Part shown: positions 695 to 18,068 of the stretch, in pieces | Layout of the letters: every line of letters begins with the position of its first letter | Position numbering within the stretch: position 1 is the stretch's first letter | IMG/VR virus record: IMGVR_UViG_3300021387_000529 | Span: 282,811 to 300,878 of that record | From: a virus | Lineage: Duplodnaviria; Heunggongvirae; Uroviricota; Caudoviricetes | DNA length: 18,068 bases | Direction: 5' to 3' (one strand) | Made by a program: the position numbers and the translations under genes | Notes under the pieces: generated by a model | Database searches by the model: none | The model's input: only the letters and a program-made list of their open reading frames with translations | What the model was told of the DNA's origin: nothing

Positions 695-1591
695 ATGGCA
701 ATTTATGAAGCAAGATGTGTAGGAAAAGAAGAATTCTATCCAACAGAAGAATGGATACGTGATGAATTATATAAACTTATAAAGAATAATCCAAAAACAA
801 TTTTAGACCCATGCGCAGGAAAAGGTGGTCTTGAATATTTTAATAATCCAGAATATACATACACAACATATGATATAAAAGACTACGGAATTGGCTCAGA
901 AATATGTGACTTCTTAAAAAGAGAATATGCAGGCGAAAGATTTGATGCAGTAGTTGTCAATCCGCCATACAAGTACACAGTTGAGTTTATTGAAAAATGT
1001 TTTCTATATTCTGATGATGTTTATGTAATTGCGCCAATCAAAACGATTGCTATGAACTTTGCAAATTGTATTGCTGGCTGGTCTTTGAATTATAAAATGT
1101 CACAAACATTTAATATCTTCACAAGTGTTGGATGTTTTGCATTGCATAAGAATGCTTCAACATTTGGAAAGATTAAAATTTCTAAAAAAGAAATGTTGAA
1201 AAAAATGTTTTTGCCAGAAGCTACAAAAACTTGGGCAGACACATTTGTTGAAGTCGACCACTGCACAGAAAACAAGCCATTCATAGTGAATAGACTTTTT
1301 AAGATGCGTGTTTTACGTGATGAAGAACTTATTCAAGACGAAGACATTTATGAAGCTGGTGATGAAAGCGCATTTATCGCTACTGGACAGAACTTATATG
1401 TGAAAAAAGGCGATAAGATTAAAAGAAGAATTATGTATTTTGACACAATGGAAGATGCTAAAAAGTTTCAGAAATTGTATAATGAAAATGATAAATATAT
1501 TAGAGAATACTGCTACCAATGGGGCAACAGTATTCTCCGATTGAAAGAAATACCTTTACTTGTTAGTGGGCAAGATACGAAGCAATCTTAG
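695..1591 (+). CDS. Orphan DNA amino-methyltransferase (probably N6-adenine), motif I then IV, C-terminal putative target-recognition region
   Basis: FYPTEE, SAM-binding ILDPCAGKGG, catalytic VVNPPY; no adjacent cognate endonuclease. Confidence 0.85.
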   Translation: MAIYEARCVGKEEFYPTEEWIRDELYKLIKNNPKTILDPCAGKGGLEYFNNPEYTYTTYDIKDYGIGSEICDFLKREYAGERFDAVVVNPPYKYTVEFIEKCFLYSDDVYVIAPIKTIAMNFANCIAGWSLNYKMSQTFNIFTSVGCFALHKNASTFGKIKISKKEMLKKMFLPEATKTWADTFVEVDHCTENKPFIVNRLFKMRVLRDEELIQDEDIYEAGDESAFIATGQNLYVKKGDKIKRRIMYFDTMEDAKKFQKLYNENDKYIREYCYQWGNSILRLKEIPLLVSGQDTKQS

Positions 1592-3419
1592 CCGTACCAT
1601 ATCTGTCACAAGCGCTCATCAAGTCACTGTATTCAATATCATACTGTGGCATGATGCTGATAGCTTTCTTAACAAGTGTTTCAAATGTACCACGAGAAAC
1701 ACCCATTTCTTCAGCAACAGCTTTGAGGTTTGTAGCATCTGGATTAGTGAGCAATTTCCAAAGAGCTGCAGCTGGAGTGCATTTTTTGCCATCATTTAAA
1801 GTCTCATCTTGAGCATAGTCAAACCAGTTTTTCAAGAAGTCGTCTTTTGAAAGTTTATCAAGAACTGAGTCTTCAAGACCTTCACGAGCAAAAGCATCGT
1901 CTTCACCATCAGTTCTTTCACGGCCATTATCAAATTCAAGGTCTGTCATTGAGACTGGAGTATCAGCATTTGAAACACCATTTGAGTCATTCATCGTATT
2001 ATAAACTTTTGCTTGCTCAATAACATCCAATCTGAAGTGAGAAGCAAATGCATTTTCAGGGTTGCCAGTTACTTTACTTTCATCAAAACCTTCAAGTGTT
2101 GAGAACTTATGGCGCTCACTGCCATTTTTCTTTGTGATGTCAACGCCACCTTTAATAAGAGCTTTCAAACAAATACCAATCCAACCGAGAATAGAAGACT
2201 TCAAACCGCCGTCTTCTTCAATACGAACTTTTCTCATTTTTGGATTTGGTCCCAAGAAATTGCGCCAATATGTATTAATAATCATTGGAGCATGCTTGTA
2301 CATCAAGAAACCAATAGCTGTTTGGTCACCTTCACGTGCTGCTTGAACAGCATCAAGAAAGTCGCGGCTTTCCCATTTTTGGTTAGAAGGTGTCTTGTAA
2401 ATTCTATCAACAAGGTTTACACCATCTTTAATTTTGCTGTCACTTACATCTTTAAGGTCTGCAAGTGAAACTGTAGCGTCAGCTTCTCGAAGTGTTTTCA
2501 AGATTGACATTGCAGCTTTCTTATAATACTCGAAAGCTTCTTTGTAGGCCTGGTTGCCAACTTTGATATACTTGTTTCCTGTCATGTTATCCTCCATTGC
2601 TTTGACAACCTGGTCTGCATAAGGGTGTCGAGCATAATTTTTTTGAATTTCTAGTGTTGTTCCAACAGCTTTTGCAAGTGCTTTAGTAAAATTATCATTG
2701 AGTCTATAAATGCTCATAGTTCCTTTTAAGCATTCATTGATTGTGGCAATAACAGCTCGTGGCTCATCACTGTCTTTGTATTGCTCAAAAATTGGATTTT
2801 TACTTCGTTGTGCAATTGAATTATTTATTTCTGTGAGTACAACTTGTTTTTTAGTATTTAATAAATTTAATTCTTCAGCTAATTTTTGTTGAAGTTCTTT
2901 ACCCTGTGTTGTTCTTAAATCATATGCATTAAGGTCTTTTTTGCTTTTAACAAATGTAAAATAAACAACACTAGAAGCATCATTTGCATTTAATACAAAG
3001 CATTTAGAATTATTTTCGAAAACAACAGAATTATATATGCGTCCTTGGAAGAATGTTGTTTTAAAATTTCCAAGTTTATCTTCGCTTCTTAAAAATATTT
3101 CTCTTAAAGTCTTAGAGTCTAATTTTGGTTGCTCTTCTTTTCTATGCTCTTTTTCATATGCTTTTAAATAAGGTGAAATCTCTTCAGAATACTGTCCCAA
3201 ATCACTTTTAATGCCATTAACTAAAAGTTTATAATAGTCATCATCAGTCTTAATGTTGTAATTATTGTCATTACTACAATATTTTATATATAAGTCTTCT
3301 TTATCGTCTTTTTTATCAGTATGGAATTTAAGTGCGAGAATTCTTTTAATTTTCTTTAAGTTTTCATCTTTTAATGTGTATTGTTCACGTAGAATAGCTT
3401 CAAAAAGTAAACCTTCCAT
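1563..3419 (-). CDS. 618-aa protein with C-terminal sigma70-family-like region (regions 2-4) and an unknown N-terminal domain of about 345 aa
   Basis: Start moved to ATG 3419 (follows AACTAATTT motif). AVQAAREGDQTAIGFLMYKH resembles region 1.2/2.1; GFDESK...FASHFRLDV resembles region 2.3/2.4; TPVSMTD resembles the region 3 linker; TNLKAVAEEMGVSRGTFETLVKKA resembles the region 4.2 HTH. Confidence 0.7.
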   Translation of the reverse strand: MEGLLFEAILREQYTLKDENLKKIKRILALKFHTDKKDDKEDLYIKYCSNDNNYNIKTDDDYYKLLVNGIKSDLGQYSEEISPYLKAYEKEHRKEEQPKLDSKTLREIFLRSEDKLGNFKTTFFQGRIYNSVVFENNSKCFVLNANDASSVVYFTFVKSKKDLNAYDLRTTQGKELQQKLAEELNLLNTKKQVVLTEINNSIAQRSKNPIFEQYKDSDEPRAVIATINECLKGTMSIYRLNDNFTKALAKAVGTTLEIQKNYARHPYADQVVKAMEDNMTGNKYIKVGNQAYKEAFEYYKKAAMSILKTLREADATVSLADLKDVSDSKIKDGVNLVDRIYKTPSNQKWESRDFLDAVQAAREGDQTAIGFLMYKHAPMIINTYWRNFLGPNPKMRKVRIEEDGGLKSSILGWIGICLKALIKGGVDITKKNGSERHKFSTLEGFDESKVTGNPENAFASHFRLDVIEQAKVYNTMNDSNGVSNADTPVSMTDLEFDNGRERTDGEDDAFAREGLEDSVLDKLSKDDFLKNWFDYAQDETLNDGKKCTPAAALWKLLTNPDATNLKAVAEEMGVSRGTFETLVKKAISIMPQYDIEYSDLMSACDRYGTAKIASYLAH

Positions 3420-3423
3420 AATA

Positions 3424-3432
3424 AAATTAGTT
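3424..3432 (-). promoter_or_regulatory. ACTAA-class putative late promoter (AACTAATTT)
   Basis: AACTAATTT-TATT-ATG; includes the TAA stop of the upstream gene. Confidence 0.45.
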
Positions 3433-5028
3433 GTTGTCGCTCTCACTTTCTATAAAGTCACGTTGATTTCCAAAATATTTGTTTGCAATTGCTTGGAATT
3501 CAGTACTTCTAACTAAAGCTTCAAGACCTTCATATTCATGTTTACCAGCTTCTTCTCTACGTTTATCAATGCCAGCTTTTATTAAAGGCATCATCCAACC
3601 AAGACCAATGCCTTGCATCATAAAGTCTGCACCATCAGTAAGAGCTGCTCCCCATTCCTTTCCAACTTCAGTTACAACTTGTTTCATCACACGTGAAGCC
3701 ATAGAAGGATTACCACCATCATCGAGGCCATCTTTAATCGCTTCAACAGCAGAAAAAAGTCTTGTAATATATTGTTTCGCGCCTGAGTTTGCCTTAATGC
3801 TTTCCCAAGACCAGTCTATTTCGATGTCTTCTTTTAAATGAGACTCATTTATCTTTTGTGAAGTTTTTGTATCTTGTGTGTCTTGTGCAGCTGCTGAACC
3901 AGTCTTTTTACCATTTATATATTCCAAGAATGTATTGAAGATCTCTTTTCCAGCAGGCCCAAGTTCAGGGTCATCGAATGCTTTTACTATTTGAGGGCTA
4001 ATTTTAATTTTATTGTTTTCCCAAAGCATTTCTTTAATTGGGCCAAGTTGGTTATAAACTTCTGTTGAACAATAGATAGTAATAACACCTTTGCCTATAT
4101 TAGCATTATGCAAGCTTGTGTTAAATTTTGAAACTCCAGCAGAAGGACTAACAGTCTCAACGCCTTCTTCATTCGCTTCTTTTAATGCAAATGTTCTAAG
4201 ATTTTTAATAGCAATTGTCTCTTTAATTTTTTGGGCAATAAGCACTGCAAATGTTTTCCAAGATGTAATTGTTGGAACATTTTCATTGAAATGGTTGATT
4301 AATGCTGTTCCCTTTCTATGATGAAGACACTCTACATAGCTGTTTAAGTCAAAATGGCCATCACCACCTTTATTTATAGATGTTGTAATAATTGTGCATC
4401 CTTGATAAATTGGCTTTTTTAGCTCATTGATAATAGCATCTGTTTTTTGTAAATTTGGCAAAAATGGATTTAATGGCCAAATGATGAGTCCTTTATTTAT
4501 ATCAATATTACTTGCTTTATTAGTTGTTTCATCGCTATTATATTCTTGGATAGAATTTTTATCTACATTTGTAAGAGCTTTTTCAACATTTGTAGTTTGC
4601 AGCTGATTTCCTGCAGTAAGCGCTAATTCAGTTGAAGCTGGCTCAACTTTTATAACAACTTCCCATGGATTTGTTCTACCATTATTTTTACCAGACTTAA
4701 CGCCTTGTGAAGCAGTATATGGATTTTTTATAACTCTATTCGCGATATTCAAGCTTTCACCAGTGAGAGGTTTAATTCCATAATTCTGTGGTTGAGCGAC
4801 TAAGTCTTTAAATAAAGTAGAAAATGCAATGTCTATAATATTATTTTTTTTACCTTTTTGTTGATTGACTAACTCTGCGAATTTATCAATCATTTGTTGT
4901 GTCCAATTGCTTGACTTAGCTGCTTTTATAAAGCCATCTTGTAAATTATGATTTTTGTCAATAACACTTGTATTGTTTATTTCTTTTAATCTTTGTGCTG
5001 TTTTTAATGACTCTAAAATATCTACCAT
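3427..5028 (-). CDS. Hypothetical protein, 533 aa, possibly an internal virion protein
   Basis: Long intact ORF after ACTAA motif; (I/L)xE clusters at the N-terminus (ILE, LKE) and before a C-terminal module (INESHLKE); no family recognised. Confidence 0.8.
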   Translation of the reverse strand: MVDILESLKTAQRLKEINNTSVIDKNHNLQDGFIKAAKSSNWTQQMIDKFAELVNQQKGKKNNIIDIAFSTLFKDLVAQPQNYGIKPLTGESLNIANRVIKNPYTASQGVKSGKNNGRTNPWEVVIKVEPASTELALTAGNQLQTTNVEKALTNVDKNSIQEYNSDETTNKASNIDINKGLIIWPLNPFLPNLQKTDAIINELKKPIYQGCTIITTSINKGGDGHFDLNSYVECLHHRKGTALINHFNENVPTITSWKTFAVLIAQKIKETIAIKNLRTFALKEANEEGVETVSPSAGVSKFNTSLHNANIGKGVITIYCSTEVYNQLGPIKEMLWENNKIKISPQIVKAFDDPELGPAGKEIFNTFLEYINGKKTGSAAAQDTQDTKTSQKINESHLKEDIEIDWSWESIKANSGAKQYITRLFSAVEAIKDGLDDGGNPSMASRVMKQVVTEVGKEWGAALTDGADFMMQGIGLGWMMPLIKAGIDKRREEAGKHEYEGLEALVRSTEFQAIANKYFGNQRDFIESESDNN

Positions 5029-5034
5029 AATATA

Positions 5035-5043
5035 AAATTAGTT
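5035..5043 (-). promoter_or_regulatory. ACTAA-class putative late promoter (AACTAATTT)
   Basis: AACTAATTT-TATATT-ATG; no SD. Confidence 0.5.
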
Positions 5044-6061
5044 AGTCACCAATAGAAGTCTTGTTTTTTCCAGAATGCTTAGAACAATACAAAAGTGAGT
5101 CAACAACTTTAATATTTTGGTCGAGAGTTAGACTATTGTCATATAATACAGCTCCAACTGAAATAGAAAATGATTTTTTAATAGAATTATCATTTTTAGT
5201 TCTGTTCAAAACATTGATACGAACAGCTTCAGCAATCTTATACAAGTCATATTTTAAAGTCAAGTCTTTCAGGATAATAATAAACTCTTCACCACCATAA
5301 CGGATAATTTTATCATCTTTTCGTAAGATTTCTTGTAATATTTTGTATAGTGACTTTAATGAAGCATCACCGTTGCTATGGCCAAATTCATCATTTAATT
5401 TTTTAAAATTATCGATGTCAATCATAATAATACCACAGTTTGTCAAATCTTGATCGTATAAATAATATCGATTATATGCGCCAGTAAGCTGGTCTTTATA
5501 TGCGTGCTCACGCAGTTCTTTGTTTACTTCACATAGTTTTTTGAAAGCGGTATAAGTGACAACGTATGTAAATAAGTATGAAACAGTTGTTCCAACCAAA
5601 ATTCTGGTAGAGTTTGTTGTATAGAACTCAATATTTTCAATATTTATTTGGTATTTTATTTTCAGCCAAATTAAAAAGTCATATAAAATTATAGGAAAAA
5701 ACCCAAGCTTTCCGAGATTTTTGTCGAGATAAGAAACTAAACCGAATGTTGATGAAATAAGATTTAAAAAATAAATGAAGCCGCCATCTTTACTTGAAAT
5801 TAGTAATGCTGGAAATGTAAGATATGCCATCAAAAATATTATGATTTTTGGATATAAATCATATTTGTTGAGAATAAAAATAGTAAAAATACCTAATATG
5901 AAAACTAAAGAAAAACTGATAGTAACAGAAATGATGTTTATATTGCCAATAAAAGTATTTTCATAATTGATGTAATCAATTAAAAGGCCTGCTCCATTCG
6001 AAATGACAGCAAGAATAAAAAAGATAAATGAAAGCTTAAAATTAAATCTATTATTAGTCAT
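5042..6061 (-). CDS. Membrane-anchored diguanylate cyclase (GGDEF domain)
   Basis: About 5-6 hydrophobic helices in the first 175 aa, then DQLTGAYNR, IDIDNFKKLNDEFGHSNGD, I-site RKDD five residues before RYGGEEF, and FSISVG. Confidence 0.93.
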   Translation of the reverse strand: MTNNRFNFKLSFIFFILAVISNGAGLLIDYINYENTFIGNINIISVTISFSLVFILGIFTIFILNKYDLYPKIIIFLMAYLTFPALLISSKDGGFIYFLNLISSTFGLVSYLDKNLGKLGFFPIILYDFLIWLKIKYQINIENIEFYTTNSTRILVGTTVSYLFTYVVTYTAFKKLCEVNKELREHAYKDQLTGAYNRYYLYDQDLTNCGIIMIDIDNFKKLNDEFGHSNGDASLKSLYKILQEILRKDDKIIRYGGEEFIIILKDLTLKYDLYKIAEAVRINVLNRTKNDNSIKKSFSISVGAVLYDNSLTLDQNIKVVDSLLYCSKHSGKNKTSIGD

Positions 6062-8231: not shown

Positions 8232-9023
8232 ATGAAGACCTTTAATCTTGACTTCTACGGCAAAGACAGTGTCCGTTTTAATCGTGACATCCAGGTCCCA
8301 GATGAAATATATGATGAGTTCAAAAAACTCTTCGATGCCGCAAAAGACGGAGAAGAAATCTTCGATAAAGTTTCATCAGCTGATGTTTCAGCTTTCTTGA
8401 AAGAGCTCAATCCGAATATTTCACCAAAAGTTTTGCGTACTGCAAAATGTAACAAAGTTTTGGTCGATGAATTGAAGAAACAGAAAGTTGATGAGAATTC
8501 AACTGATGCTGAAAAAGTTCGAGCAATGTATCGTGCAAATCTTGAAATTGCAAAGACTCTTAACCACCAGAAAAATGTTGCAAAAAACTTCAAAGAACAG
8601 GAAGAAAAAGCCAAAGAAAAGGTAACAGCTTCTCAGGATAAAATGATTGAAGTTAAGGCAAAGCAGGAAGAAAAGCTCGCCAAACTTGATGAAGAAGAAA
8701 AATCTATCAAAGCAAAATATGCAAAAATGCCGACTTTGAAAAAAGAAAAGCTTGCTAAATTGAAGGAAAAACGCGCCAAGCTTGAAGCTCAACTTGAGAA
8801 ACAGAATGAGCGCATTGAAAAAGCACAGTTCAATCTTCAGAAAAAGCAGGAAACTAAGGACATCAATCTTGGAACTTCTTTGGGAGCATATGCTGACTAC
8901 CGCATTATCTACAGCTGGTGTAATGATATGAAGCTCAATCCAAAGAAAATCTACACAAAAGGTTTGCTTGACAAATCACAGTCATTTGCAAATACAGACA
9001 AAAACTTCTGGAAGACAATCTAA
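8232..9023 (+). CDS. C-terminal half of an archaeal/eukaryote-type DNA topoisomerase IB (catalytic core remainder, coiled-coil linker, Tyr domain)
   Basis: LDFYGKDSVRF (human FDFLGKDSIRY, K532), PKVLRTA (AKVFRTY, R590), ANLEIAKTLNHQK (ANRAVAILCNHQR, H632), Lys/Glu-rich linker, INLGTSLGAYADYRI (IALGTSKLNYLDPRI, Y723). Own SD AAGGAG and promoter. Confidence 0.88.
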   Translation: MKTFNLDFYGKDSVRFNRDIQVPDEIYDEFKKLFDAAKDGEEIFDKVSSADVSAFLKELNPNISPKVLRTAKCNKVLVDELKKQKVDENSTDAEKVRAMYRANLEIAKTLNHQKNVAKNFKEQEEKAKEKVTASQDKMIEVKAKQEEKLAKLDEEEKSIKAKYAKMPTLKKEKLAKLKEKRAKLEAQLEKQNERIEKAQFNLQKKQETKDINLGTSLGAYADYRIIYSWCNDMKLNPKKIYTKGLLDKSQSFANTDKNFWKTI

Positions 9024-10384: not shown

Positions 10385-10918
10385 ATGGAAGATAATGAAA
10401 AAGAAGAAGAGCGTACTTCTTCAAAAACATTAGCTGAGCTAGAAGCAGAAAGCTTACGTAGATTTGAACAATTTATAGAAATTACATGGCAACCTATTCC
10501 AAATAGGCATAAAGTACGTGTATGGATAGATGATGGTACGTTTAAAATGGTTATGTCAAATGAGAAATTTATCAAAACTCTTGAAGATATTTTGATGGAT
10601 AACCAATCACAAAAAACGTATTATAACATGCGCAATATTGAGAATTCATTATCACAATATCAAGGTTTTTATCAATATAACCGCCAAACAGATGAATATA
10701 GAGCTTTGAACCAGTTACGCTTTAATGATAAGTTGACAAAACAAGACTTGTATGAAAATGCACGTGCAGACTATGACGCAAAGTTTGGAAAAGACAACGT
10801 CTTAAACCATATGGTAAATATCAGCTTATTCGATAAGATGGCTGATGCTGACATTCGAAAACAAAATATACAGAACAACTTATTGAAAAATACAGCGCGC
10901 TTTTATGGAGGATTTTAA
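10385..10918 (+). CDS. Hypothetical protein, 177 aa
   Basis: Intact ORF coupled to the next gene by a TAATG overlap. Confidence 0.75.
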   Translation: MEDNEKEEERTSSKTLAELEAESLRRFEQFIEITWQPIPNRHKVRVWIDDGTFKMVMSNEKFIKTLEDILMDNQSQKTYYNMRNIENSLSQYQGFYQYNRQTDEYRALNQLRFNDKLTKQDLYENARADYDAKFGKDNVLNHMVNISLFDKMADADIRKQNIQNNLLKNTARFYGGF

Positions 10919-11877
10919 TGTTACTCACAAATGAAGACATGGAAGGCGTGTTTGAAAGAATGTACTGGCATTTGAAAATACGTCTGACAACAAGATGCAA
11001 TATGGCATGTGCACATTGCTATGCAGCTTCAGAGCAGTATGCCTCATATGAAAAAGAGAGACTTGAAAATTTTGAATGGGTTGACAGACTTGCAAAAAGT
11101 GAATATATTAAGTTTCTGCATCTTCAAGGCGGTGAGCCAACATTAGAGCCTGAAGCAATAAAAGAGTGCGTAAAAATTGGACATAAATACGGAAAACCAG
11201 TTTGTGTCTTTACAAATGGAAAAAGACTGTATGAAGATGAAGACTTTAGAAATGAGTTTTTAACATTTGGTGTTGACAACATAATTGTTTCATTTAATAA
11301 GTATCTTGAAGCACAAACAGACCAGGCAAAGGTTGTGAATACGCTTATGCACTTTTTTGAAGATAAACCAAACATTCATTTTGGCTCAACAGCAATTATC
11401 GATAAAGACCATATCGCTCATCTTCAAAGATGGATTCAGCATTTTGGTTGGCCGCCATATTATCCAGAAGACTTCCCAGACGTTGAAGAAAAATTAGAAA
11501 ATAAAAAATATTGGAAGTTTCAACTGCCATTATGCTATTCAGACCGTGGAGCAAAAACTGCTGCGAACAATGACGTTGCTGAAATAACTTGGCCAGCATT
11601 AGGATGTGACTTTTCGCCAGTTCTGATGCCATCTGGATTTTTACAAGCAGATTGTGGATGTTCTTCAGTTAGAAAATGCTTATTAGGCTTTATAGATGAC
11701 TTTGGCGATGACCCAATAGACTATATTGTAACAAATATGTCACGTTATATCCACTATAACGTTCATGCAAATGGATTTTATCAAATTTGTATGAAAAATG
11801 ACAATATGAGATGTCTTAGAAAATATCCGCCACGAACACGGCCTGACAGTGAATATGAAGAAAGGATGAAATACTAA
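10918..11877 (+). CDS. Radical SAM enzyme with Cys-containing C-terminal extension
   Basis: TTRCNMACAHCY (CxxxCxxC), GGEPTL, VFTNG; further Cys in GCDFSP and DCGCSSVRKC; SD GGAGG. Confidence 0.9.
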   Translation: MLLTNEDMEGVFERMYWHLKIRLTTRCNMACAHCYAASEQYASYEKERLENFEWVDRLAKSEYIKFLHLQGGEPTLEPEAIKECVKIGHKYGKPVCVFTNGKRLYEDEDFRNEFLTFGVDNIIVSFNKYLEAQTDQAKVVNTLMHFFEDKPNIHFGSTAIIDKDHIAHLQRWIQHFGWPPYYPEDFPDVEEKLENKKYWKFQLPLCYSDRGAKTAANNDVAEITWPALGCDFSPVLMPSGFLQADCGCSSVRKCLLGFIDDFGDDPIDYIVTNMSRYIHYNVHANGFYQICMKNDNMRCLRKYPPRTRPDSEYEERMKY

Positions 11878-16882: not shown

Positions 16883-17710
16883 CTAGAGGGACTTTTTAAA
16901 TCTATCTTGAAATATCGACGGAAATCTTTTAATTGTTTTTTCAATCATTCTTTTAGTAAGTCCAGTTTTTAAAACAAGTTTAGTTACGTAGCCGAACTTA
17001 GAAATATCTACACCACTTTGAAGAATTATATCTTTTCTATGTTCCCATTCTGATGTTGGAATAAGAGTTCTATTAACTTTTCCAGACTTGTCAACAAGTC
17101 CAAGAGCAGCTTTTTTTGCTTTCCAATTGTCATATTTTAGTTTTTCAAGTCTTTTTTTCTCAAAAAATTGGTCTTGTAATTTTAATTCAAATGAGTCATC
17201 TATAAATGACTTCATCATTTTAATAGCATTTTCTTTTTCTGTTTGGATAAAGCTCCAACTAAGTCTTAAACATGTCCAGCCATTTGACTTTAACCAATCA
17301 TCTCGTTTTTTATCGTAGTCTTTTTGTAATTCATGCTGTTTGCCATCAATTTCAATATAACGCATCTTTTTTGGCCAAGCAAAGTCTAATTTATAGTGTC
17401 CTACAGGTAAGTTATATTCAAAGTCTTTATCATTAAAATTATTTTTTATTACAGAAGAAAACCATAATTCAGGATATGACATTCCATTTACATTTTTCCG
17501 TGTGTTTGCCCAACCTTTATGTCTACCTTCACTATGAGCAATTTTCATCTTTTGAGAGATTTTTTCTTTAGTTTCTTTTGAAAGTTTATGGCTTTGATAG
17601 ACTTTTCTGTTTGGATTCATAATACAATATTTAATATGTCTACTTAAGCCACTTTTAGTCGTGAGCTCACGACCACAAAAACTACATACATGTAATTGAA
17701 CATTCATCAT
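16883..17710 (-). CDS. Free-standing DUF559/Vsr-like (EDxHD-type) putative homing endonuclease with zinc finger and NUMOD3-like motif
   Basis: CSFCGRELTTKSGLSRHIKYC (Zn finger), HKLSKETKEKISQKMK (NUMOD3-like), SYPELWF, YKLDFAW, IEIDGKQH. Confidence 0.8.
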   Translation of the reverse strand: MMNVQLHVCSFCGRELTTKSGLSRHIKYCIMNPNRKVYQSHKLSKETKEKISQKMKIAHSEGRHKGWANTRKNVNGMSYPELWFSSVIKNNFNDKDFEYNLPVGHYKLDFAWPKKMRYIEIDGKQHELQKDYDKKRDDWLKSNGWTCLRLSWSFIQTEKENAIKMMKSFIDDSFELKLQDQFFEKKRLEKLKYDNWKAKKAALGLVDKSGKVNRTLIPTSEWEHRKDIILQSGVDISKFGYVTKLVLKTGLTKRMIEKTIKRFPSIFQDRFKKSL

Positions 17711-17725: not shown

Positions 17726-17805
17726 TGCATGTGACAAGATTCGAACTTGCATTTTCAGCTCCATTTACAGATACCTGTTTCGTAGACAGGACTGGCTACA
17801 CATGC
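17726..17805 (-). tRNA. Non-canonical tRNA-like gene, anticodon ACG (Arg), D-arm absent; CCA not encoded
   Basis: Acceptor GCATGTG/CACATGC plus discriminator A; T-arm GCAAG-TTCGAAT-CTTGT; hairpin CCTGT-CTACGAA-ACAGG; only 8 nt (TAGCCAGT) where the D-arm should be; 23 nt between anticodon and T arms. Confidence 0.65.
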
Positions 17806-18068
17806 TCATGTTTTTCACATAAATATCTATAATATTCACGTGTTTTTCTGTTTGAATTGAGGAACATACATTTCATATATTCTTCACAAGCTTCTGTAAG
17901 TTGATAACCAAGTTTGTCTTTGAAAAACTTTAGTCTGGCCACAACTTTACCATCATTGTAAACTGGTCCAACAAAAGAAATTATTCCAGTTTTCATAGTT
18001 TCTTCAAGAGCAGATGAATACAACTTTTTCCAAAGTGGGATCCAAGCTGCACTGTCAATAGACAATAA
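17796..18068 (-). CDS. Hypothetical protein, C-terminal part (probably starts outside the window)
   Basis: Frame is open to the window edge; TAG stop at 17796-17798 lies inside the tRNA-like 5' end. Confidence 0.6.
   Translation of the reverse strand, partial: LLSIDSAAWIPLWKKLYSSALEETMKTGIISFVGPVYNDGKVVARLKFFKDKLGYQLTEACEEYMKCMFLNSNRKTREYYRYLCEKHEHV

Follow-up and report, generated by a model that had tools for sequence, protein, structure and literature searches.

The tRNA cloverleaf is treated as universal apart from animal mitochondria, and the locus described here raises the question of whether phages of ordinary bacteria encode a decoding tRNA that is wired differently. The locus lies in an 18,068-nucleotide (nt) stretch of DNA, hereafter the window, which forms the right end (positions 282811-300878) of a 300,878-bp Caudoviricetes record in IMG/VR (IMGVR_UViG_3300021387_000529) that has a 107-bp direct terminal repeat; the DNA runs that contain the stretch come from ruminant gut samples. 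At 17726-17805 of the window, on the minus strand, an 80-nt gene with the anticodon ACG combines most parts of an ordinary tRNA with a core that has no D hairpin in its usual place. Using homologue searches, covariation analysis, and comparison of genomic contexts, we conclude that this gene is probably a working tRNA-Arg(ACG, read as ICG) with a rewired core, and one of a large conserved family of phage genes.

Results

Anatomy of the gene

Outside its core the gene follows the canonical pattern, with a 7-bp acceptor stem, a 5-bp anticodon stem under a 7-nt loop that has U33 and a purine at position 37, and a 5-bp T stem closed by a UUCRANY loop (Table 1). The anticodon loop, CUACGAA, is the same as the usual loop of bacterial tRNA-Arg(ACG). 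These parts had been listed in an original prediction made from the letters alone (a 7-bp acceptor stem, a UUCGAAU T-loop, and a CU-ACG-AA loop on a perfect 5-bp stem), and every detail was correct when we re-read the minus strand. The departure lies between the arms. Only 8 nt, UAGCCAGU, sit between the acceptor 5' strand and the anticodon stem, and a 23-nt segment, UAUCUGUAAAUGGAGCUGAAAAU, sits between the anticodon arm and the T stem; no D hairpin (positions 10-13 paired with 22-25 around a loop with G18-G19) is found between position 9 and the anticodon arm. The segments can form two helices, UAGC (8-11) with GCUG and CAG (12-14) with CUG, which we call helix 2 and helix 3, with UAAAUGGA looped out between them. 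The first U of the spacer that follows the anticodon stem is positioned opposite the N26 equivalent, and the conserved motif UAANUGGA occurs together with the canonical T-loop within the 80 nt.

The Rfam tRNA model RF00005 matches at exactly the coordinates of the gene, above its gathering score of 29 bits and with an E-value of 4e-4, and its alignment places 5 nt where the 15-nt D-arm would be and a 20-nt insertion in the variable region, which agrees with the earlier claim that the D-arm is missing. For ARAGORN that claim had come with an expectation of a low score or a D-loop call, and the program made no call at 17726-17805. Folding the single sequence gave a z-score of -1.28 relative to shuffled sequences, with the AT-rich T stem mis-paired.

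Table 1 Coordinates of the gene, its parts, and other features (window positions unless a genome or locus is named; numbers with L denote loci)
Feature	Position	Strand	Remarks
Whole 80-nt non-canonical tRNA-Arg(ACG) gene (putative)	17726-17805	-	RF00005 34.9 bits; family model R1 93.5 bits
Acceptor stem 5' strand GCAUGUG	17799-17805	-	7 Watson-Crick pairs with CACAUGC at 17727-17733; all 7 covary family-wide
Discriminator A73	17726	-	
Helix 2 5' strand U8-A9-G10-C11	17795-17798	-	Partner GCUG at 17756-17759
Helix 3 5' strand C12-A13-G14	17792-17794	-	Partner CUG at 17768-17770
U15 (N26 equivalent) and anticodon arm, stem CCUGU/ACAGG, loop CUACGAA	17774-17791	-	All 5 stem pairs covary
Anticodon ACG	17781-17783	-	
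3-nt spacer UAU, 3' of anticodon stem	17771-17773	-	Family consensus U-A-N; UAA, UAT, UAG or UAC in 99/118
D-loop-like bulge UAAAUGGA	17760-17767	-	Assigned U13 (uncertain), A14, A15, N16, U17, G18, G19, A20
5-nt linker AAAAU, variable-loop equivalent, last base U48	17751-17755	-	5 nt in 116/118 members
T arm, stem GCAAG/CUUGU, loop UUCGAAU	17734-17750	-	Canonical T-loop; stem covaries
Upstream open reading frame, 3' part	17796-18068	-	222 aa in full, from genome position 503 across terminal repeat
Downstream open reading frame, C2H2 zinc finger and DUF559 endonuclease-like domain	16883-17710	-	Pfam DUF559 E 8e-15
GGDEF, topoisomerase IB, and radical SAM genes	5042-6061, 8232-9023, 10918-11877	-, +, +	Pfam matches
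Suppressor tRNA, tmRNA, long-variable-arm tRNAs	Genome 143689-143761, 136983-137361, 1631-1714, 4040-4125, 138181-138262, 140032-140116		
Intermediate-class example	L109:954-1027		Anticodon CCU
Swapped layout with Ile (UAU, GAU) or Lys (CUU) anticodons	L036:926-1007, L045:4806-4885, L274:1802-1883, L045:4498-4574, L243:692-772, L244:11003-11080		

A large family with the same layout

To collect relatives we scanned IMG/VR with three sequence patterns and then with a covariance model, R1, which encodes the layout acceptor, U-A-N-N, C-N-N, 1 nt, anticodon arm, U-A-N, N-N-G, U-A-R-N-U-G-G-A, N-N-U-G, 5-nt linker, and T arm. A pattern that combined the odd segment with the T arm matched 15 viral contigs, and a looser one matched more than 120, from which a filter on acceptor and T-stem pairing retained 24 distinct sequences of about 80 nt among the matches listed. 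The third pattern, in which the letters of helix 2 were left free, added at least 84 further matches at 70 bits or more. At least 118 distinct sequences with the full layout were parsed from viral contigs. Scores against R1 were well separated: full-layout copies in IMG/VR scored 73-95 bits and ordinary tRNAs below 37, with a few full-layout copies at 64-71 bits (70-71 in two IMG/VR loci and 64.6 in the Microbacterium phage Zooman) and a small intermediate class at 40-63. The gene studied here is among the highest-scoring of the family and is the only member in its own genome, where the next best R1 match reaches 23.8 bits.

RNAalifold, run on a MAFFT alignment of the 24 homologues with no structure supplied, recovered the same five helices: the stems of the acceptor, anticodon, and T arms, the pairing of positions 8-11 with the 4 nt that follow GGA, and that of positions 12-14 with the 3 nt preceding UAAAUGGA. 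Existing tools largely overlook these genes, since ARAGORN called only 12 of 130 copies and thus missed about 90%. A blastn search for near relatives of the 1.3-kb region among GenBank phages returned no match. The family sits mostly among other tRNA genes, with further tRNAs nearby in 106 of 115 loci and eight or more in 52 of them, and some phages carry two to four copies, each with a different Arg anticodon.

We also searched 185,579 prokaryote species genomes with one specific pattern and found six true copies, all of them on contigs of metagenome-assembled genomes (MAGs) with phage-like tRNA arrays; as this pattern catches roughly half of the family, absence from the other cellular genomes is not shown. 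At L175:679-1199, on a 1.36-Mb contig of an Armatimonadota MAG, a family member precedes five consecutive tRNA-Thr genes; the locus may belong to a prophage or may be a tRNA array of the cell itself.

Covariation of the rearranged core

Covariation statistics were computed on an alignment of 91 distinct sequences (A2), a check of the kind that had been proposed with the original prediction. Standard pairing was present in 96.3% of cells compared to 64.2% in shuffles, and the covariation score was 0.851, compared to 0.211 in shuffles and 0.09-0.14 when the partners were slid. Both new helices covary. In helix 2, pair 10 is GC in 41 sequences, AU in 35, UA in 2, and CG in 1, and pair 11 is CG in 59, UA in 13, AU in 4, and UG in 4, which supports the proposed pairing of UAGC with GCUG, with U8-G and A9-U invariant and those two pairs therefore unproven. 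In helix 3 the C12-G pair is invariant, while pair 13 (GC 69, CG 10, AU 9) bears out the pairing of CAG with CUG. In a mutual-information scan of all column pairs, the top ranks were taken by pairs of the proposed helices only.

Two anticodon positions aside, the strongest pair outside the helices couples the bulge's third base to the base at the end of the linker. Across the 118 members the combinations are A-U in 106, G-C in 7, and G-G in 5, and no others occur. A-U, G-C, and G-G are the known combinations of the Levitt pair between positions 15 and 48, with G15-G48 present in E. coli tRNA-Cys. This coupling suggests that the looped-out bulge, U-A-R-N-U-G-G-A, behaves as a D-loop (A14, R15, G18, G19, A20), as had been predicted for UAAAUGGA. 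The bulge can be read as a D-loop because it succeeds the 3' strand of helix 3 as the D-loop succeeds positions 10-13; on the other side, a single nucleotide (the N26 equivalent) links the 5' strand of helix 3 to the anticodon stem, in the manner of positions 22-25. Compared to the cloverleaf, the order of segments thus reads as a swap of one block, the D 5' strand with the D-loop, and another, the D 3' strand with the anticodon arm. Segment lengths are fixed in 103 of the 118 members: a single nucleotide precedes the anticodon stem and three follow it, the bulge is 8 nt long, and the linker has 5 nt.

The intermediate class has the ordinary tRNA length of 74-78 nt and shows the same swap with helix 2 small or absent, which makes helix 2 look like an added clamp at two new joints. 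Helix 3 would be the equivalent of the D-stem, stacked above the anticodon stem. A stack of helix 3 (3 bp), a 26-44 layer, and the anticodon stem (5 bp) would have approximately the length of the canonical D-plus-anticodon arm, and a normal-sized L-shape is therefore plausible.

Probable arginine identity

Arg anticodons are present in 117 of the 118 members (UCU 66, ACG 27, UCG 16, CCU 5, GCG 2, CCG 1), the exception having UGU, so that 117 members have NCG or YCU anticodons; the gene studied here, with ACG, likewise has the C35 with G36 or U36 that ArgRS reads. The loops around them are of the kind common in tRNA-Arg (CUUCUAA and CUACGAA, for instance), with U33 and the purine at position 37 conserved. 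The search patterns had fixed GGA, and the base after GG was judged only on copies that no pattern had selected: among these, GGA was present in 18 of 18 with Arg anticodons, and GGU in 10 of 10 with Ile anticodons (UAU, GAU) and in the one with a Lys anticodon (CUU), counted after two wrongly parsed rows had been put right by eye. A20 is an established identity element for ArgRS, and the A after GG would be its equivalent, presented to the enzyme by the shifted loop. In the variants with Ile and Lys anticodons (Table 1), helix 2 is of a different form.

The sequence CCA directly follows the discriminator in 59 of the 118 members, and C74 is present in 113. Together with the restriction to Arg anticodons, the A20 equivalent, and the setting in tRNA arrays, the encoded CCA makes an Arg(ICG) decoder the best fit of the three functions originally offered, the others being an anticodon-nuclease decoy and a regulatory mimic.

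The gene provides the only ACG tRNA of its genome. In the long open reading frames (ORFs) of the phage, CGU, CGC, and CGA occur 11.5, 4.4, and 3.3 times per 1000 codons (19.2 in sum, compared to 14.2 for AGA) and account for about half of its Arg codons. An ICG tRNA and the canonical UCU tRNA encoded elsewhere in the genome would together cover approximately 94% of Arg codons directly, and up to 98% if the UCU tRNA also reads AGG.

Members in cultured phages

Several cultured phages carry the family. The Caulobacter phage phiCbK has an unannotated ACG copy between its tRNA-Gln and tRNA-Gly genes (NC_019405.1 52333-52412; L281:2998-3077), and this family member is its sole Arg tRNA; phiCbK was reported as the only phage of its group without an Arg tRNA (PMC3556154). 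Other phiCbK-like phages, including CcrColossus and CcrPW, have matches at the equivalent place by BLAST only. Of two copies in the Brevundimonas phage Bajun, one is annotated as tRNA-Arg and one is unannotated. About 290 Vibrio phages of approximately 114 kb match as well, and in one of them, D419, a number is missing from the series of tRNA locus tags at the position. The Pseudomonas phages Ty and PP21 carry a family member, with BLAST matches in PA11 and Boevelstad, and Felix O1 has a short variant at 25951-26029 that scores 36.8 bits against R1. With the Zooman copy included, the hosts span Alphaproteobacteria, Gammaproteobacteria, and Actinobacteria, and the phage studied here comes from the ruminant gut.

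Genomic setting

ARAGORN found 42 tRNAs and a tmRNA in two arrays of the genome, with a canonical UCU tRNA as the sole Arg call. The gene lies just downstream of the minus-strand array (723-5387), reading across the terminal repeat, and is separated from it by the 222-aa ORF. This ORF contains the nucleotidyltransferase-like motif hG[GS]...DxD, matches Pfam NTP_transf_5 weakly (E 8e-4), and ends in a TAG stop codon that coincides with U8-A9-G10 of the tRNA. The nearest relative, L037, which is 94.8% identical over 345 nt, is arranged in the same way; within the tRNA the two differ only in one T-loop base and in a compensated T-stem pair (A-U to G-C).

The homology with L037 stops 2 nt past the 3' end of the tRNA. 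The DUF559 ORF begins 16 nt past the tRNA, and at its site L037 has a terminator-like hairpin. The DUF559 gene thus appears, from this comparison, to have been inserted just after the tRNA, and a break in synteny at this point is as expected for the insertion of a homing endonuclease. A search of neighbouring genes across the member loci recovered no conserved partner protein: it turned up only homing endonucleases, a sigma-like protein, a kinase, and an RNA ligase, and none of these is general to the family. The tRNA-repair genes among them (T4 Rnl1-like ligase, AAA_33 kinase) are present in 7-8 member loci.

Other tRNA genes of this phage are also unusual. A second odd tRNA-like gene lies at genome positions 141228-141313 on the plus strand, where ARAGORN reports 'Phe-AAA' and the Rfam tRNA model gives 34.9 bits. 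Its acceptor stem, D arm, and T arm are normal, and a 6-bp palindromic CUGCAG/CUGCAG stem with a 20-nt loop takes the place of the anticodon arm; further copies occur at L031:95-179 and L042:401-485. We considered it as a member of the Arg family and rejected it, as it scores 23 bits and has only a short motif in common. The phage also encodes a UAA-suppressor tRNA (anticodon UUA) in addition to the tmRNA, as well as tRNAs for Lys, Phe, and Thr that bear long variable arms, a feature normally absent from these isotypes. Pfam matches elsewhere in the window include a GGDEF diguanylate cyclase, a eukaryotic-type topoisomerase IB, and a radical SAM protein.

Discussion

A proposed route to decoding

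We propose that the gene would be transcribed together with the phage tRNA array, that its transcript would be trimmed by RNase P and 3' nucleases, and that, for a copy that encodes no CCA, the CCA-adding enzyme would supply it. The RNA would adopt an L-like fold with helix 3 on the anticodon stem, the GG docked on the T-loop, and A15 paired with U48, and in the 80-nt form the UAGC/GCUG helix would clamp the two new joints. ArgRS would charge it through A20, C35, and G36, TadA would convert A34 to inosine, and the resulting ICG anticodon would decode CGU, CGC, and CGA.

Several observations weigh against the view that this gene is a decoding tRNA of such a fold. Helix 2 is proven by covariation for two of its pairs only. 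Pair 14, which is formed by five pair types, is unpaired in 32 cells (about one third of the sequences), mostly as A.C. The gene itself encodes neither C74 nor CCA and is one of few members of this kind, so that its RNA would need the CCA-adding enzyme. A canonical tRNA-Arg with the same anticodon sometimes adjoins a family member, for example at L036, and simple codon supply therefore does not explain the design. Anticodon class showed no association with local Arg codon usage (p 0.42), nor with GC content (p 0.87), although comparisons on such short loci carry no weight in either direction. As for transcription, a search of RNA data with the 1.3-kb stretch listed no RNA data set. In a second search, bovine-gut metatranscriptome runs shared 5-14% of words, and contigs from them cover 17740-17821, but their flanks are unlike those of the window; they are thus copies from relatives, could be DNA carry-over, and show neither RNA ends nor transcription of this gene.

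Alternative explanations

The alternative that we take most seriously, while still considering it unlikely, is a tRNA-shaped RNA that does not decode, acting as a decoy or sponge for a tRNA-Arg nuclease or modifying enzyme, or as a charged Arg donor in a non-ribosomal reaction, with the unusual core keeping it off the ribosome or EF-Tu. The coexistence of canonical tRNA-Arg genes with the same anticodon, sometimes adjoining, would fit such a role, as would the Rnl1-like ligase or AAA_33 kinase in 7-8 member loci, and tRNA-targeting defences and phage tRNA counter-measures are documented (PMC10264068, PMC12409363). A decoy, however, has no need for a full set of Arg isoacceptors within one phage, for a conserved U33/purine-37 loop or an encoded CCA, or for the strict segment lengths of an adaptor that fits the ribosome, and phiCbK has no Arg tRNA other than its family member. 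A regulatory mimic is a further alternative that fits less well than a decoder.

The rearranged order of canonical parts also brings to mind a precursor that is cut and rejoined into a canonical cloverleaf, analogous to permuted or split tRNA genes, and an RNA ligase and a kinase are indeed encoded in some member loci. Most member loci, however, have no ligase gene, and the rearrangement is an internal swap rather than a circular permutation, from which the canonical order could be reached only by three cuts and three ligations. We noticed no bulge-helix-bulge motif, although no search was aimed at one, and helices 2 and 3 covary, as would be expected for a structure selected in its own right; we regard this route as very improbable. 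Least credible of all is a functionless gene, a tRNA-Arg that has decayed or been rearranged, for example through damage by a neighbouring homing endonuclease. The missing ARAGORN call, a single-sequence fold that is no better than shuffles, and the endonuclease-like gene that abuts the tRNA all point that way. The original prediction had named a lack of homologues with compensatory changes as the sign of such decay; instead, the distinct homologues, at least 118 in number and found in unrelated phages, keep all helices through compensatory changes, the layout is the same where no endonuclease is nearby, as in L037, and the 93.5 bits of this gene place it among the top of the family.

Significance of a rewired core

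If the gene is a decoding tRNA-Arg, the rewired core may allow it to evade host factors whose recognition of tRNAs depends on the canonical D-arm or core, for instance tRNA-targeting defence nucleases; of the purposes considered, this one is the most attractive given the many tRNA-targeting defences and the counter-tRNAs of phages. More tentatively, and with real doubt, the family could represent a natural second architecture for elongator tRNAs in phages of many bacterial phyla, charged by the host ArgRS, used by ordinary ribosomes, and kept for its invisibility to tRNA nucleases or to factors that read the D-arm and core. If the genes of the family yield working tRNAs, an adaptor with altered wiring is tolerated by bacterial ArgRS, EF-Tu, RNase P, and the ribosome, phage tRNA inventories such as that of phiCbK are incomplete, and tRNA finders require a new model. 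The design would also be usable as a natural scaffold for orthogonal tRNAs, and the family could point to tRNA-targeting defences yet to be found.

Comparison with known systems

The closest known relatives are canonical bacterial and phage tRNA-Arg, such as E. coli tRNA-Arg(ACG) and the sequences described by RF00005. The family shares with them the 7-bp acceptor stem, A, G, or U at position 73, the CUACGAA loop, the UUCGAAU T arm, a 5-nt variable-loop equivalent, a GG-A that supplies A20, Levitt-type covariation of 15 and 48, and a place in phage tRNA arrays. It differs from them in having no D hairpin, in the location of the D-loop and of the D 5' strand downstream of the anticodon arm, and in an extra helix of 2-4 bp that joins the acceptor side (8-11) to the linker side through the 4 nt after A20.

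The family resembles the D-armless tRNAs of metazoan mitochondria, for example mitochondrial tRNA-Ser(AGY) (PMC4013460, PMC9427863), in having no D hairpin and in the extension of the helix that bears the anticodon. Those forms are shortened, have lost the elbow contacts between GG and the T-loop, and require co-evolved factors, whereas members of the family are 74-82 nt long, keep the D-loop motif and a canonical T-loop, and occur in phages of ordinary bacteria. The gene studied here shows none of the marks of the mitochondrial forms, namely a short unstructured stretch in place of the D-arm, missing D-loop and T-loop elbow motifs, and a smaller size. The permuted and split tRNA genes of Cyanidioschyzon and Nanoarchaeum are circular permutations or halves that are processed into a canonical cloverleaf. 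The family is like them in that the order of its segments departs from that of the canonical molecule, and unlike them in that the swap is internal and the rearranged structure is itself conserved; the acceptor strands lie at both ends of the gene, and a 3' half upstream of a 5' half is not found.

We know of no phage tRNA that counters a defence by means of a changed architecture. With the phage tRNAs that do counter tRNA-targeting defences, including those of a paper on AriB/PARIS (PMC10264068, PMC12409363), the family has in common isoacceptors that duplicate host or phage tRNAs, as well as nearby homing endonucleases and tRNA-repair genes. The known cases escape by point changes in the anticodon loop, while the family differs in architecture and no nuclease has been linked to it.

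In the full-text literature, with subscription journals outside the coverage, we found no description of a rewired phage tRNA-Arg design, and phages go unmentioned in a 2020 review of natural non-canonical tRNAs (PMC7609411). According to a 2024 paper on an engineered non-canonical tRNA in E. coli (PMC11551756), every bacterial tRNA known so far has the canonical form. With that laboratory construct, bacterial translation can be brought to use a fold other than the cloverleaf; the family would differ from it in being a natural, phage-encoded exception.
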